The notes beneath the pieces were generated by a model. That model saw nothing but the letters and a program-made list of their open reading frames with translations, had not been told where the DNA came from and made no database searches. Source: Promethearchaeota archaeon (GTDB taxonomy: Archaea > Asgardarchaeota > Lokiarchaeia > Sigyniarchaeales > SOKP01). From it: 64,000 nt of DNA. Shown one piece after another: positions 2,215 through 32,750 of this stretch (positions are counted from its first letter, which is position 1; each line of letters begins with the position of its first letter). The stretch covers positions 288,001-352,000 of the forward strand of contig JAUVNS010000002.1 in the NCBI GenBank assembly GCA_030599585.1, given 5' to 3'. The translations under genes and the position numbers were made by a program.

Positions 2215-3552
2215 ATGGCACCCGAAGAAGAATTATTTGAAAGTTGTAAACAATATTTGGACACTCCAGAGGCAATTGGTTTAGATGGTATTGATTTGGA
2301 GAAGTATATTATCGCGTCTTATACAATTAAGCGCCCTAAAGGAATGAACGTGAATTATTTATCCCGATTTGCCGCAATTGAACAATCTACAGGAACTTGG
2401 GTCAGAGTACCTGCAGAAACGGAGGAAGTACGAAAGAAGCATGTCGCACGAGTACTTGGAGTCTACGAACTGCCTCACTTAGAATATATTATACCCAAAG
2501 ATGTTAAGGAGAGAATTTATTTCGTTCAAATAGGTTTCCCTATAGTGAATATTAAAGGATGTGGTATTCCAATGCTACTAACATCAGTTATTGGAAATAT
2601 CAGTATTACGCACGGACTAAAATTAGTAGATCTCGCATTTCCAAAAGACTATTTAAAGGAATTCAAAGGTCCAAAATTCGGAATTGACGGTCTCCGAAAA
2701 CTCTTGAAAATACCCGAACGGCCTTTACTAAACAATATGGTAAAGCCATGTACGGGACACACTGCAGATGTAGCTGCTGATTTAGTTTATAAAGCTGCAG
2801 TAGGGGGTTGCGATGTTGTCAAAGATGACGAATTGATTTCAAATCCATCCTTCAATACTTTAGAAGATAGAATAGTTAAAGTTATGGAAGCAGTCGATAG
2901 AGCAGATTCTGAAAAAGGAGAAAAAACACTATATACAATTAACATAACAGGTAAATTTCCAGAGATGTTTGAATACGCTGATAAAATGATCGAGTTAGGC
3001 GCAAACGCACTTATGATAAATTATCTCACTGCAGGTTTTGAAGCTATGAGAGCCATTGCCGAGGACCCTTCTATAAAAGTACCGATTTTAGGTCACATGG
3101 ATTTTGCTGGCGCCTATTTTGGTGGTCACTGGACCGGGTTAACAAGTATGATAACTCTTGGAAAATTCCCGAGGATGTGTGGAGCGGACACAGTTGTAAT
3201 TCCAGCACCTTATGGAAAAGCAGAGATTTTAGACGAACGATACGAGCAAAACTTAAAAGTCCTAAGATACCCATTCCAACATATAAAACCTACGCTACCT
3301 ATGCCTAGTGGTGGTATTACGCAAGGTATGGTTGAAAAAACTATGAAAGAAGCAGGAAAGGATATTCTTATAGGAAGTGGTGGTGGAATTCATAGTCATC
3401 CAGATGGACCAACTGCGGGCGCGAAAGCATTTAGACAAGCGATTCATGCTGTAATGAATGGGATCGCCGTTAAACAGTATGCTAAAGACCATGAAGAATT
3501 AGGTAAAGCTCTTGGAGTATGGGGTACAGGAAAAACAGCTCTAATTGAATAA
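2215..3552 (+). CDS. RuBisCO-like protein (form IV RLP)
   Basis: Motifs EQSTGTW, FKGPKFGIDG, DVVKDDE, PSGGI, GGGIHSHPDG. It has KPCTG instead of KPKxG and GHMDF instead of HRA, so it is not a bona fide carboxylase. Start set at ATG 2215 because the upstream part of the ORF is a T-tract. Confidence 0.85.
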   Translation: MAPEEELFESCKQYLDTPEAIGLDGIDLEKYIIASYTIKRPKGMNVNYLSRFAAIEQSTGTWVRVPAETEEVRKKHVARVLGVYELPHLEYIIPKDVKERIYFVQIGFPIVNIKGCGIPMLLTSVIGNISITHGLKLVDLAFPKDYLKEFKGPKFGIDGLRKLLKIPERPLLNNMVKPCTGHTADVAADLVYKAAVGGCDVVKDDELISNPSFNTLEDRIVKVMEAVDRADSEKGEKTLYTINITGKFPEMFEYADKMIELGANALMINYLTAGFEAMRAIAEDPSIKVPILGHMDFAGAYFGGHWTGLTSMITLGKFPRMCGADTVVIPAPYGKAEILDERYEQNLKVLRYPFQHIKPTLPMPSGGITQGMVEKTMKEAGKDILIGSGGGIHSHPDGPTAGAKAFRQAIHAVMNGIAVKQYAKDHEELGKALGVWGTGKTALIE

Positions 3553-28412: not shown

Positions 28413-30572
28413 TTAGGATGCCGATTCGTCGATTATATCGTAAATCTTATCAATAAGGGCACTAATCTTTATTGTTTCTTGCTCTTCAGTTTTCATATTT
28501 TTTATCGTAACTTCGTTTTGTTCCATCTCTTTTGGACCAATGATCAATACGATCAAAACTCCAAGTTCATTGGCTTTACTCAATTGATTTTTAAGATTAG
28601 AAAATCGATAATCTACGATACATGGAAAATCTTCACCTCTTACCATTCGAGCTAGTTTCAAAGCATAATCTGATACATTTGCTTTAATAGAAGCAATATA
28701 AATAGTGTCGGTATAATCAGGTTCCCGAATTTCTTCTGGGATTAAGTTATATGTTTTTAGAAATAAAGAGAACATTAAAACGCCCATTCCAAATCCAGTT
28801 CCTGTTATTTTTTCGTCAGAAAATAGAGAAAGTAAGTCATCATAGCGTCCACCACCAAAAATACTCCTAATGTTTTCTTTTCCTGTATCAAAAACTTCAT
28901 ATACGATTCCGGTATAATAATCCAGACCGCGTAAAACTCCAGGTGAAAAGGTACAATACTCTGAGAGCTCAGCATCTTCTAGAAGTTGTATAAATGAAGT
29001 TAGCTCTTTATATCCTATTGTATCGTAAAATTCTTCAGAAATCTCTTCAAATTGGTTTAAAAGGTCTTTTAAACTTGTCGCGTCTTTTAACTTAGATATA
29101 CCTTGAATAATAATCTCGTCTTGAAAAATATCTAATACGTACTTCTCGTATTCCGAGTCTTCCATTTTATCAGCTTTATCTAAAATTTTATACACTAAAG
29201 GTATTTTTTCTTTAGGCACATTCAATATTAATTCGCAAACCGAATCTATGAAGCGACGATTATTGTAATAAATTTGAAATTGCTCAGGTGTAGCACCAAA
29301 TTCAGTAAAAATGTTAACGATAATGGTAAATATTTCTAAATCAGCATAAAGACTATCTTCTCCTAAAATATCTGCGTTAAATTGATAAAATTCCCTACGA
29401 CGTCCTTTTTGTGGCTGTTCATACCGATAACATTTTGGGATGGAATACCATCGTATTGGCTTCTTCAGTTCTTGACTTTTCTTAGCGACCATTCTAGCTA
29501 AAGATGGAGTAAGTTCAGGTTTAAGAATCAACTGAATATCCTCGATTTTTTCAACATAAAAAGATTGTTCATTCACTAACTCATCAGATGATTTTGCTGC
29601 GTATATCTCAATTGGTTCTAGCAATGGCGTTTCAAATGCCTCATAACCAAATAATTCCACGACATCTTTTATATTATCAAGAATCCAGTTTAATTCACGA
29701 AAATCTGAAGGATAATAATCATTCATTCCCTTTACAGGTTCGGGTGAAAATTTTAAATCTGGTAATGACTTCTCCCAAATTCTAAATTTCTCTTGAATAT
29801 ATTTATACTTAAAATCTAATGTAAGTATATTTCCTTTATTTTTAATGTCAAAATAAAAGAAATCTTCGAAAATTACCATATAATTGGGTATTCTTGGCGA
29901 TAAGATCGCTTGATTGGTTTTTTTTTGAAGCTGATTTCGATATTGTAGAGCTTTATTATATGCTTTTAAAGCAAAACTGGCTTCTTGTATATATTCGGTC
30001 TTTTTTTTCTTTGAATAATATTTTAATAAAGCTATTTTTTGGATTCGTAAATCTCCAAGAATTTCATAGAAGTATAATAATTGTCTAATATTGCTTTCTT
30101 TGTTGAATTTCTCAATCTTAGAAGCTGTTAATAAAATAGCGTTATCTAAATTTGAAATCATTTGATCAATTTTCAAAGGATAAGTTTCTTTAAAAAATTC
30201 TTCTGGACTTTTTGAGATCATTTCGTGAGCTACTAAATTCCTCTCCTTTGAAATAAAATTGAAAATGTAATTATTTAACCGTAAATAATAAGAAAAATCA
30301 ATATATTCAATTCCATAAAATTTTCTGTTTAAAACAAGATAATTATTAAAAATATTGATCTGTTTTAATTCATAATTTCTTATTTGGCTTAAATATGACT
30401 CTATAGAAAAATCACTCAAAAATTTATATTCTAGAATAATTTTCTTTACTTTCTGTAATAAGACCATATAATAATTAACGAACTCCGCTTCACCAATTTG
30501 ATTGAACAGTTTCGAGTTTTTAATCTCTTCAATTTTTTCTTCTAACGATTCAATTTCAAAATTTAGTTTCAA
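28413..30572 (-). CDS. hisS: Histidyl-tRNA synthetase with a long helical N-terminal extension
   Basis: Core PVKGMNDY, LKPELTPSLAR, YRYEQPQKGRRREFYQ, RGLDYYTG, GGGRYD, anticodon domain. About 275 extra N-terminal aa. Frame is open up to ATT 30623. Confidence 0.9.
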   Translation of the reverse strand: MKLNFEIESLEEKIEEIKNSKLFNQIGEAEFVNYYMVLLQKVKKIILEYKFLSDFSIESYLSQIRNYELKQINIFNNYLVLNRKFYGIEYIDFSYYLRLNNYIFNFISKERNLVAHEMISKSPEEFFKETYPLKIDQMISNLDNAILLTASKIEKFNKESNIRQLLYFYEILGDLRIQKIALLKYYSKKKKTEYIQEASFALKAYNKALQYRNQLQKKTNQAILSPRIPNYMVIFEDFFYFDIKNKGNILTLDFKYKYIQEKFRIWEKSLPDLKFSPEPVKGMNDYYPSDFRELNWILDNIKDVVELFGYEAFETPLLEPIEIYAAKSSDELVNEQSFYVEKIEDIQLILKPELTPSLARMVAKKSQELKKPIRWYSIPKCYRYEQPQKGRRREFYQFNADILGEDSLYADLEIFTIIVNIFTEFGATPEQFQIYYNNRRFIDSVCELILNVPKEKIPLVYKILDKADKMEDSEYEKYVLDIFQDEIIIQGISKLKDATSLKDLLNQFEEISEEFYDTIGYKELTSFIQLLEDAELSEYCTFSPGVLRGLDYYTGIVYEVFDTGKENIRSIFGGGRYDDLLSLFSDEKITGTGFGMGVLMFSLFLKTYNLIPEEIREPDYTDTIYIASIKANVSDYALKLARMVRGEDFPCIVDYRFSNLKNQLSKANELGVLIVLIIGPKEMEQNEVTIKNMKTEEQETIKISALIDKIYDIIDESAS

Positions 30573-30815
30573 GATTTTATTTAATCTTTCTTCTTCAAAT
30601 ATATTATTATTATTCTCTACAATCCTTCACCATTTTTGTTATACATCCACGATGGATACTTTTAAAGCAAATATCTATCCTTATCACAGAGTCTTTTAAG
30701 AAATTTTTTTGATTGGTGTTATTACGAATTGATATGAATAGAATCAAATTAAGTTTACTACTTGATTATTAGTGAAAAATATATCTAATAGAAAAGAAAG
30801 AAACTGAAATGCGAT

Positions 30816-32363
30816 TTAAAAAAAATTCTCAAAATCTTTTTGTTGTTCTGCTCTAACCCCATATTTAATAATTAATTTTCTATAGAAATTATTAGATAAA
30901 GTTCTTAATTCTTCAAATGAAGAAGGAGAATAAATAGCTTTATTTGCAAGTGCAATAATTGTTTTTACAACTTCTCTAATTTTAGGTTTATAATTGAAAT
31001 TTTTAAGAAACTCTGAAATGTTAATTATTTTAATATTATATTTATAATCAATATCAAGAGGTATCATAAAAGTTTTAATAGTAGTGAATAAAGTTATTAT
31101 AATCAACATCATGCTATTATCATGATATCCTTTTCGAAATTTGCGATAAATAGTAGATAACCGAGATGTAATTGTATAATCAAAATTTATAGCTCGAATA
31201 TTTGAAGGGATTCTAATTTTAGTTAAATTCAGAAATTCTTGAGTAAGGATTATAGAATTATCTACGCGATAAGATTTATTAGGACTAATCTCATAAAATG
31301 AAAGAATTCCCTTATCTTTGTAATTTTCCATAAAAAGAAATTCTAAGATTTTATGAATCATTTTACCAATTGTTACAACTATATCACTTAATGTGAATTC
31401 TCTTATCCAAGTATCATAATTTTCACCTGATTCAAAAATGAATCTCTTGACAACCTTTCTTATCTGGGACGCAGAGGGAGATTTTTCTTTATAAATATGT
31501 TTAATTTCATTCTTTACTTCATTAAAGTTTCCAACTTCTTCGAATATTTGTTTCCATAATATTGCATCTTCAATAACCCACTTTCTTTCATGATGTTTTG
31601 AATTTCTTTCATACCATAGGTCATAATTTTTTCCTAGCAATTTTTTTAAAGATTTTTTTATAGCTTTTGCATCATGACTTGTTCTTTCAGAAAGCCTTTT
31701 TAGTGTACCATATTCTTCAAAAAGGGTTTTCCAATATATTACGGTTTCTACTGGAAATGAATATTTAGCATTTTCAAGCAACCAATTCTCATATTCTTCT
31801 TTTAAAATCTTTTGTAATCCTTTTCTTATCGTAAATGCATCTGGAGGGTTTTCTTTAGCCGAAATTCTTAATTGATCTCTTACATCTTTTAAACTTCCAA
31901 GTTCTTGATATAATTTTTTCCAATAATGATAATCAGCTTCTGAATAAATTTTATGTCTCTCTCTTCTACTTCTCTCATGTTGTTTTAACCAAACATCATA
32001 ATTAACCTCAAGAACTTTTGTGATATAATTGTTCACATAATTAGAAATCGTTCCCCAGTGAGGTCCATGAATATTCCCATCTTCTTTTAAGTGATCTTCT
32101 ACAGCTTTATAGCTATGTAATTTTTCGTATAATTCCTTCCACGACTTTGCATCATCCCAAGAATATTTCCCCATTATTTTATATTTATTATACCAAGTAT
32201 TGAAATTGGAACCAATAAATTCTTTTAATTTGCGCTTTATAGTATTAGGGGGGACATTTATCTTAAATTCTTTATAGTACTTTTTACTAGCTTCATTCAA
32301 GTTACCAAATCTTTCATATAATCTTTTCCATTTAAGAACTTCTTCATTATTGTACTTACTCAT
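30816..32363 (-). CDS. Orphan protein: five tandem HTH-like repeats plus putative PD-(D/E)xK-like nuclease domain
   Basis: Five repeats with W-K-x-L/I-Y/F...I-K/R/S...Y/F-x-x-W. C-terminal GKMIHKILE...YE...RVD...FDYT. Confidence 0.55.
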   Translation of the reverse strand: MSKYNNEEVLKWKRLYERFGNLNEASKKYYKEFKINVPPNTIKRKLKEFIGSNFNTWYNKYKIMGKYSWDDAKSWKELYEKLHSYKAVEDHLKEDGNIHGPHWGTISNYVNNYITKVLEVNYDVWLKQHERSRRERHKIYSEADYHYWKKLYQELGSLKDVRDQLRISAKENPPDAFTIRKGLQKILKEEYENWLLENAKYSFPVETVIYWKTLFEEYGTLKRLSERTSHDAKAIKKSLKKLLGKNYDLWYERNSKHHERKWVIEDAILWKQIFEEVGNFNEVKNEIKHIYKEKSPSASQIRKVVKRFIFESGENYDTWIREFTLSDIVVTIGKMIHKILEFLFMENYKDKGILSFYEISPNKSYRVDNSIILTQEFLNLTKIRIPSNIRAINFDYTITSRLSTIYRKFRKGYHDNSMMLIIITLFTTIKTFMIPLDIDYKYNIKIINISEFLKNFNYKPKIREVVKTIIALANKAIYSPSSFEELRTLSNNFYRKLIIKYGVRAEQQKDFENFF

Positions 32364-32750
32364 TACTATAATCTCAATTTAAGTCTCATTTTATATTAAA
32401 TCCATTTAAGATTTAGGCTTCTTAATTGATCCCAAAATTTATTTTACGAGTAGAAGTTGATAAATATATAATTATTTTTACTGTATTAAAAAATTACACC
32501 TTATAGATTTTCTGATTTAAAAATAAAAAGCAGGAATTTAAAGTCATACCTATTCCTCTTAGTGGTTTGGGTGATAGTTTCTTAGACATAATATTGCTCA
32601 CTTAAATTAGCGCTTGTAATATTTAAAAAAGCGATCATTTACAATTATCTTTTTCGTTTTTATTGGATTAAGGAAAGTTACTTTAGTCTTTCCTTCTCTA
32701 ATACCATTCAAGATAAAAATCTATTAAAATAATTAAGCGTTAAAATAAAT

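Follow-up and report, generated by a model that had tools for sequence, protein, structure and literature searches.

Both homing endonucleases, including some of the PD-(D/E)xK type, and phage examples of free-standing homing are already known (PMC6083498, PMC2988022), and PD-(D/E)xK is one of six recognised homing endonuclease families (PMC6083498). Free-standing endonucleases cut at some distance from the gene that encodes them, and the DNA in between is co-converted (PMC2988022). Here we analysed a 64,000-nucleotide (nt) stretch of DNA from a Promethearchaeota archaeon (Lokiarchaeia, Sigyniarchaeales; contig JAUVNS010000002.1 of assembly GCA_030599585.1, positions 288,001 to 352,000 of the forward strand), referred to below as the window, which carries next to hisS an open reading frame (ORF) of 515 amino acids (aa; protein P0001, window positions 30816..32363). 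It combines five helix-turn-helix (HTH)-like repeats with a PD-(D/E)xK-like domain. This ORF, its parts and all parts of the window's hisS described below lie on the minus strand. The locus resembles those of SegF, SegG and MobE of T-even phages in that the nuclease gene lies beside, not inside, the presumed target gene, in the presence/absence polymorphism at a fixed site, in the co-conversion of the target flank over hundreds of bases and possibly in the difference between nuclease-adjacent target alleles and naive ones (PMC2988022). Those enzymes, however, are phage proteins of the GIY-YIG or HNH type, whereas the putative nuclease described here is archaeal and chromosomal and joins a PD-(D/E)xK-like domain to an array of five HTH-like repeats. 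The cassette at hisS differs further in that it leaves a 5' remnant of the target behind and fuses an N-terminal extension to the target protein. A literature search returned no description of the protein family, of its architecture, of an archaeal chromosomal free-standing homing system or of hisS as a target.

Two other groups of enzymes are related in design. I-Ssp6803I is small and intron-encoded and is not known to have a separate DNA-binding array. By fold, its family belongs to the same catalytic superfamily as P0001, but the searches with P0001 gave no sequence or close structural match to it, and motif III of P0001 is without a lysine. The R2 protein (Myb, zinc finger and RLE endonuclease) and the Type IIS enzyme FokI also join separate reading modules to a PD-(D/E)xK cleavage domain and were retrieved in structure searches with the program VIA (Z 4.8-5.0), although the likeness is at the level of the fold only (7-17% identity). 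P0001 lacks a reverse transcriptase or methylase partner, and the order and type of the modules differ.

Insertion and replacement at the 5' end of hisS

In all seven congeners fetched for comparison, the gene order membrane protein, hisS, ridA (divergent), pyridoxal phosphate enzyme, AOR and further genes beyond is kept without any gene between hisS and ridA, and in empty congeners the starts of these two genes are about 160 nt apart. Alignment of the window to its closest congener (G248) with blastn gave matches for positions 33268-32552 (92.8% identity) and 29753-28402 (87.1%). The gap between them therefore defines positions 29754..32551 as a 2.8-kb insertion with 25% GC, which is missing from all seven syntenic congeners. 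The nuclease-like ORF is the only long ORF within it. On the ridA side of the insertion, behind the old hisS promoter, a remnant of the original hisS start is retained (32552..32589; ATG plus 12 codons, MSKKLSPKPLRG), which now begins a 31-codon ORF ending at 32494. Other hisS fragments in the genome of the window were absent at E 1e-3, and relaxed settings returned only this 13-codon remnant. Around the insert, a search for terminal direct or inverted repeats gave only short, chance-like matches.

On its hisS side, the insertion contributes a 273-aa N-terminal extension that is in frame with HisRS (29754..30572; ratio of non-synonymous to synonymous substitution rates, dN/dS, 0.38). The cassette's own version of the displaced first hisS codons stands at the end of this extension. 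In the genus of the window, 35 other genomes encode a HisRS of about 450 aa without such an extension. hisS is detectable in 118 of 135 genomes of the family, and long hisS frames (639-744 aa) occur among these 118 only in the genome of the window (G000) and in G186, G162 and G226, all of which carry a nuclease cassette or its remnant. Related extensions (30-34% identity) were found at two other loci (L002 and L007). The extension has no match in Pfam or PHROG, and its Atlas neighbours were uninformative. Relative to the related genomes, the cassette is thus an insertion, made up of the nuclease gene, a spacer and sequence that replaces the 5' end of hisS (in the window together with the 273-aa extension).

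The replacement reaches well into hisS. Across ~390 nt at the start of the hisS core, the window shares only 68-75% identity with its congeners, while these share 91-95% with one another in this part; further downstream, identity to the congeners rises to 92-94%. Core codons ~4-130 (29372..29753) are thus foreign, while the 3' part (28413..29371) is resident and 92.6% identical to the closest congener. A maximum-chi-square scan of the window and the metagenomic locus L022 against three congeners placed the break at codon 131 (chi2 54-112; control pairs <=8), with mismatch frequencies to the congeners of 0.29-0.32 to the left of this codon and 0.07-0.13 to its right. hisS codons 1-130 have been replaced by a foreign version. 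A mirror pattern is seen between the loci L004 and L008, which share a tract of 94-96% identity that begins 120 nt before the end of the nuclease gene and extends to hisS codon ~132-135, and which are 76-91% identical elsewhere. The hisS remnant at locus L006 ends at codon 103.

This break zone is the part of hisS that codes for HisRS motif 2. In 53 of 59 nuclease-free hisS alleles, motif 2 reads YERPQ. Of the nine nuclease-adjacent alleles, eight have Q, T, A or G instead of the arginine of this motif, and the arginine is also replaced in the remnant-bearing genome G162; in the window, a Gln codon (29415..29417) replaces the conserved Arg and gives YEQPQ.

Several further observations concern hisS. 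Locus L005 contains a second, 5'-truncated hisS that begins at core residue ~122 (L005:11202-11747), 5.7 kb downstream of the full hisS; the two copies are separated by a gene for an 885-aa ATPase of the GajA/AbiL-like kind and by two further, unknown genes. In genus g13, nuclease-free hisS alleles (L083 of G273 and L081 of G276) have motif-2 regions reading RWYSIPKCYRYEQPQ and ...REEPQ, respectively, which are close at the protein level to the foreign segment of the window; DNA identity of these segments to the window is below 75%. We also considered whether hisS codons 131-150 form an island of conserved nucleotides, such as an attachment (att) core or recognition site might leave, and rejected this, as third-position identity there was 0.53 compared to a gene mean of 0.49 (maximum 0.60). 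Extra 3' fragments of hisS (residues ~273/280-446), apart from the main copy, occur at G159:C157:1519-2040 and G186:C103:7492-7992 and hint at a second break zone in the gene.

Repeats and C-terminal domain of P0001

The five repeats of P0001 are about 60 aa long and begin at W12, W75, W148, W211 and W270, as located by a regular expression and MAFFT alignment. They comprise aa 6-66 (32166..32348), which form three helices, aa 69-131 (31971..32159), aa 142-203 (31755..31940), aa 205-258 (31590..31751, the shortest) and aa 264-325 (31389..31574). Their common signature is a W-K-x-L-Y/F-E core, a glycine turn, a conserved Ile in the third and last helix and a closing Trp. Although the repeats of P0001 are only 16-31% identical to each other, tblastn comparisons between orthologues matched them out of register at E 1e-15 to 5e-19, so strongly that the repeats are truly homologous. 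All eight orthologues examined contain exactly five repeats, each of them strongly conserved position by position including the third helix. A fixed number of repeats that are conserved by position fits one conserved target and not a shuffled code.

AlphaFold2, with the eight orthologues as input, predicted three helices in every repeat at a predicted local distance difference test (pLDDT) of 84.5. When the whole predicted model was searched with VIA, single repeats superposed on HTH domains (Z 5.2-6.8, root-mean-square deviation 1.4-3 A, 45-57 residues). The matching repeats were 1, 3, 4 and 5, with Z values below 8, and their partners were LysR, GerE/NarL, Myb/SANT, small-terminase, resolvase and transposase HTH domains. 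The repeats therefore model as HTH-type three-helix bundles. In this they resemble tandem HTH binders such as Myb R2R3, paired/Tc3-type and LysR-type proteins, on which single repeats superpose at 1.4-3 A. In contrast to those, P0001 matches no curated HTH profile and has five copies with a W...W signature of their own in a repeat family that is unnamed. With the whole protein and 30 single repeats as queries, no curated HTH family was found at E <=0.01 in Pfam or NCBIfam, and a PDB profile search returned nothing below E 0.3. A helix-hairpin-helix reading of helices 1-2 ('LYExxGSLxxV', similar to ERCC1, UvrC or Topo V) was set aside as less likely, as the structural matches were HTH domains instead. 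Matches to TopoV_HHH were weak and insignificant (E 0.036; 0.77-0.95 against Topo V chains), and helix-hairpin-helix proteins were absent among the VIA matches listed.

The C-terminal domain (aa 326-515; 30819..31388) is predicted to have an alpha-beta-beta-beta-alpha-beta core in which G333, H337, E341, E358, D368, D395, K408, K411 and Y413 are conserved. An AlphaFold2 model built from 54 relatives reached a pLDDT of 96.1 and a predicted template modelling score of 0.91 with the element order H-E-E-(h)-E-H-E. In the corresponding 54-sequence alignment, D368 and Y413 are invariant, and conservation is 90% or more for G333, H337, E341, E358 and D395; the acidic residues E341, E358, D368 and D395 are kept in every orthologue. 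An exhaustive VIA structure search with this domain retrieved PD-(D/E)xK nucleases for about 45 of the top 50 matches (Z 4.5-6.5). The best of these were AF1548 (Z 6.5, 129 aa, 4.0 A), Can2 (Z 6.4), the Avs3 nuclease (Z 6.4) and Bse634I (Z 5.8); EcoRII, McrC, NucS, Bax1, R2 and FokI were also among the top 50. Foldseek matches in the PDB were weak (E 4e-3 or worse), yet nearly all were restriction-type nucleases, and in BFVD viral proteins matched with E values down to 1.9e-4 and probabilities of 0.98-1.0, the best named one being a PD-(D/E)xK nuclease. Together, the models support a restriction-endonuclease-like fold with conserved acidic residues. Because the canonical (D/E)xK lysine is missing, we class the domain as PD-(D/E)xK-like by fold. 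In PD-(D/E)xK variants, the lysine can be substituted from elsewhere in the fold, and the conserved K408 and K411 in the helix after D395 are candidates for such a role. Values of dN/dS are 0.24-0.31 for both the repeats and the C-terminal domain, and 0.24-0.29 for the ORF in comparison with the two closest copies.

The sequence-only reading, which was made before any database search, had described P0001 as an orphan protein of five tandem HTH-like repeats fused to a putative nuclease. All five repeats were found with the cores that it quoted, the third-helix Ile and the closing Trp, and their predicted three-helix structures that superpose on HTH domains agree with its assignment. The C-terminal motifs that it listed (G..H...E, E, RVD and D-Y-T) contain residues that are invariant in the eight orthologues and invariant or nearly so in the 54-sequence alignment. 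Its proposed PD-(D/E)xK fold is borne out as far as the restriction-endonuclease-like fold and the acidic residues are concerned, but not for the missing lysine. The gene is indeed richer in AT than its surroundings (26.4% GC compared to 33.1% for the whole window) and is set apart by spacers of 243 nt downstream and 387 nt upstream. The proposed array of DNA-reading modules agrees with the modelled HTH bundles, but it is not an interchangeable code like that of transcription activator-like effectors (TALEs). Tandem repeats ahead of a nuclease are shared with engineered TALE nucleases, whereas the repeats of P0001 are 16-31% identical, fixed at five, without a hypervariable di-residue and conserved across species. 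The homologues with different repeat counts that the reading suggested looking for did not appear among the eight orthologues. Finally, the protein is not an orphan, as shown in the next section.

Distribution, transfer and decay of the cassette

A word-indexed search returned seven full-length homologues of P0001 at 43-88% identity, and more than ten loci, all within a single Promethearchaeota family, have full-length orthologues with 39-88% identity. When 1.8 billion representatives were searched with a profile, 152 proteins matched at E <=1e-3. Most of these matches cover only profile positions ~325-515, i.e. the C-terminal domain, and have varied N-termini; in 71 of the proteins, the Pfam modules fused to this domain include HTH_32, DUF4379 treble-clef zinc fingers, TFIIB repeats, Tc3-type HTH and Myb. 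Within 400 genomes of the phylum, profile matches were restricted to one family (54 of 134 genomes there, none of 266 elsewhere). P0001 itself had no significant match in Pfam, NCBIfam, PHROGs, PADLOC or PDB sequences, the single PHROG match being marginal and of unknown function. Its nearest neighbours according to a protein language model were all multi-HTH proteins (score 0.85), which we take as a lead only. The protein family is therefore not an orphan, though it is unnamed and matched by no curated family.

In every orthologue locus with at least 39% identity, the nuclease gene immediately precedes hisS and is encoded on the strand of hisS. This adjacency was seen in DNA at L002/L003, L004, L005, L006, L007, L008, L009, L022 and L029 as well as in the window; at L023, hisS is represented by its first 25 residues at the contig end, and the locus of P0005 was available as a gene table only. 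The genes on the other side of the nuclease gene vary between the orthologue loci. Among the 118 family genomes with hisS, the nuclease or its remnant stands beside hisS in only seven, which belong to four genera. By comparison, about 31 genomes of genus g12 are empty, with 154-181 nt between a B12-binding gene and hisS.

The metagenome contig L023 carries a cassette that is 88-95% identical (about 92% overall) to that of the window next to a ridA gene that is only 77% identical, whereas G248, with a ridA 93% identical to that of the window, is an empty site. The cassette has thus moved between diverged hosts. It also decays in some lineages: three of the seven copies are degraded, being N-terminally truncated (G226), frameshifted (G171) or reduced to about three repeats without the C-terminal domain (G228), and in G162 just the final 69 residues are left, at a distance of 1 kb upstream of hisS.

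Longer inserts at hisS contain cargo genes between the hisS remnant and the nuclease gene. At L006 (598-6940, minus strand), these are four genes (355, 898, 201 and 475 aa) that correspond in size and order to a JetABCD/Wadjet-like set; the product of 898 aa matches the JetC and LmuB models. The cargo at L007 is a leucine-rich repeat (LRR) kinase. L005 has a DUF4209/PDC-S39 gene upstream of the nuclease gene and no hisS remnant was found upstream there, and the contig of P0005 has a HEPN gene downstream of hisS.

Paralogues of P0001 also lie next to other conserved genes. A paralogue clade (27% identity to P0001, 44% mutual identity) lies tail-to-tail with pyrG, the CTP synthase gene, in two metagenome-assembled genomes (L010:7986-9485 and L011:7932-9458). 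The genomes G162 and G163, compared for a replaced 3' end of pyrG, are only 75% identical and too distant for a chimera test. The genome of the window has a 669-aa paralogue with this domain tail-to-tail with rps4e (G000:C11:32971-34980, plus strand; L044:4971-6980). The ribosomal protein cluster runs on unbroken from rps4e to rpl5 and beyond in the congeners G248, G268 and G236, whereas in G000 rpl5 and the later cluster genes lie on contig C28 from position 3338, so that the cluster is split at the paralogue. A comparison of the paralogue site in G268 with G000 gave no clean empty site. G000 also contains a 14,550-aa open frame (G000:C47:27050-70702, minus strand), the last ~200 residues of which represent the same domain (E 4e-17 to the domain profile).

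Competing explanations and significance

In our judgement, the chances are about even that P0001 is the endonuclease of a small, selfish cassette of the free-standing homing type, with hisS as its target. The five HTH-like repeats would recognise a long site within the stretch of naive hisS that codes for motif 2, roughly core codons 103-131, and the PD-(D/E)xK-like domain would cut there. Repair of the break from a cassette-bearing copy would then copy the nuclease gene together with the adjoining uncut 5' end of hisS, a process that is known as 'intronless homing' with co-conversion and that T-even phages show with their Seg and Mob enzymes. Once in place, the cassette may be hard to delete because it lies between essential hisS and the old hisS promoter, and in its longer versions the stretch that separates the nuclease gene from the hisS remnant may harbour cargo of a defence-like kind. 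We infer cleavage of naive hisS from five features, namely the predicted fold, the conservation of acidic residues, the invariable position of even deeply diverged orthologues next to hisS, the clustering of break points and the changes in motif 2. The locus matches homing in its presence/absence at a fixed site, the co-conversion of the target gene, a spread discordant with host kinship and degenerate copies. The sequence-only reading had already guessed at a selfish or homing-endonuclease-like element and suggested looking for presence and absence at the hisS-ridA locus in relatives; the insertion is missing from seven syntenic congeners, and with the co-replaced 5' end of hisS, horizontal transfer and decayed copies the empty sites give this guess strong comparative support.

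Several observations weigh against a homing enzyme. Classical homing is not known to leave duplicated remnants. Motif III of the domain reads D395-Y-T (family consensus I-D-Y-x-L) in place of (D/E)xK, and structural Z values of 5-7 are modest and lie in a range that, according to VIA, may reflect a common arrangement. The best match to the foreign hisS segment besides L022 is only 75% identical, so that a close donor was not found among the sequences searched. The motif-2 arginine is also missing in six of the 59 nuclease-free alleles, and the association of its loss with occupancy (Fisher p 3e-6) is overstated by this value because the compared sequences are related. At L006 (G182), an intact nuclease with all catalytic residues stands beside a YERPQ hisS without a chimeric break. 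In addition, there are nuclease-free inserts, one in G191 (L036:1618-4519) with a DUF285 surface-repeat gene and a 34-codon hisS remnant and one in G215 (L037:1010-10768) with SBBP-repeat, 1885-aa and 225-aa genes and a 101-codon remnant with stops. They indicate a wider insertion site at the 5' end of hisS, in which the nuclease may be a passenger.

Accounting for these inserts in another way, the 5' end of hisS could be a recombination hot spot at which flexible DNA such as defence operons and surface-protein genes is swapped by ordinary or illegitimate recombination, with the nuclease as cargo, e.g. an effector of defence or restriction-like type that targets DNA, without a role in movement. 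The nuclease-free insertions with hisS remnants in G191 and G215 speak for this, as do the defence-like neighbours (the JetC/LmuB-like four-gene set, the GajA/AbiL-like ATPase, PDC-S39/DUF4209 and HEPN) and the defence nucleases Can2, Card1, Avs3, Cap4, McrC and MspJI among the closest structural matches. We nevertheless consider a passenger rather unlikely, as the protein has no PADLOC match, orthologues down to 39% identity are always next to hisS in the same orientation while other cargo varies, and the nuclease is the sole gene of the insertion in the window; nor would a passenger account for break points that cluster at codon ~131 or for the altered motif 2 of occupied alleles. The hisS remnants might also be explained by a decayed integrative element that was moved by a recombinase and brought a replacement hisS 5' end, with the nuclease as an accessory gene near the attachment site and the integrase lost or acting in trans. 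Displaced 5' remnants of 13, 34-37 and 101-103 codons at the far end of the inserts, a sharp right-hand boundary common to them and 9-kb inserts flanked by direct repeats of hisS sequence would agree with this. Integrative elements that target tRNA genes similarly have a displaced target end at one border and an element-borne replacement that keeps the gene whole. They differ from the hisS cassette, which lacks an integrase, targets the 5' end of a protein gene instead of replacing the 3' end of a tRNA gene and has varying left junctions. No integrase or recombinase family was detected with Pfam in any of the inserts examined (L005, L006, L007, G191 and G215), although an enzyme may act in trans; the remnant lengths differ, and there is therefore no single fixed left junction, and the insert of the window has no terminal repeats and holds the nuclease gene only. 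An integrative origin thus appears improbable. Least convincing, and in our view very improbable, is a non-catalytic DNA-binding protein that regulates expression of hisS or of the cassette and uses the nuclease-like domain for dimerisation or binding only. Its position directly upstream of hisS, where it is possibly co-transcribed, the missing canonical lysine and the strong position-wise conservation of the third helix of each repeat would suit a regulator. However, among 54 family members with diverse N-termini the four acidic residues and His337 vary little or not at all, most relatives express hisS without the gene, and horizontal spread and the replaced hisS end would be left unexplained.

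Extending the homing interpretation from hisS to the wider set of relatives, we propose more tentatively, and with less than even confidence, an undescribed homing endonuclease family that is confined to one Lokiarchaeia family. Its members would combine multi-HTH or other DNA-binding arrays with a variant PD-(D/E)xK domain and form free-standing cassettes beside essential genes (hisS, pyrG and the rps4e end of the ribosomal protein cluster), with cut-resistant replacement gene ends and defence cargo.

The cassette explains the odd 273-aa N-terminal extension of HisRS, and hisS core codons ~100-135, compared between empty and occupied alleles, offer a directly testable target. If the homing interpretation is true, the architecture of five HTH-like repeats and a variant PD-(D/E)xK domain would join the few known homing endonuclease families. 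It would provide a natural source of long-site DNA-targeting nucleases, and an enzyme of this kind with a known natural target and an immune allele would be raw material for engineering. It would also be the first demonstration of free-standing homing in archaeal chromosomes and would extend intronless homing beyond phages, into the chromosomes of the archaea closest to eukaryotes. For these organisms, the locus points to a mechanism by which the 5' end of an essential gene may be rewritten and defence genes may be carried between Asgard lineages.

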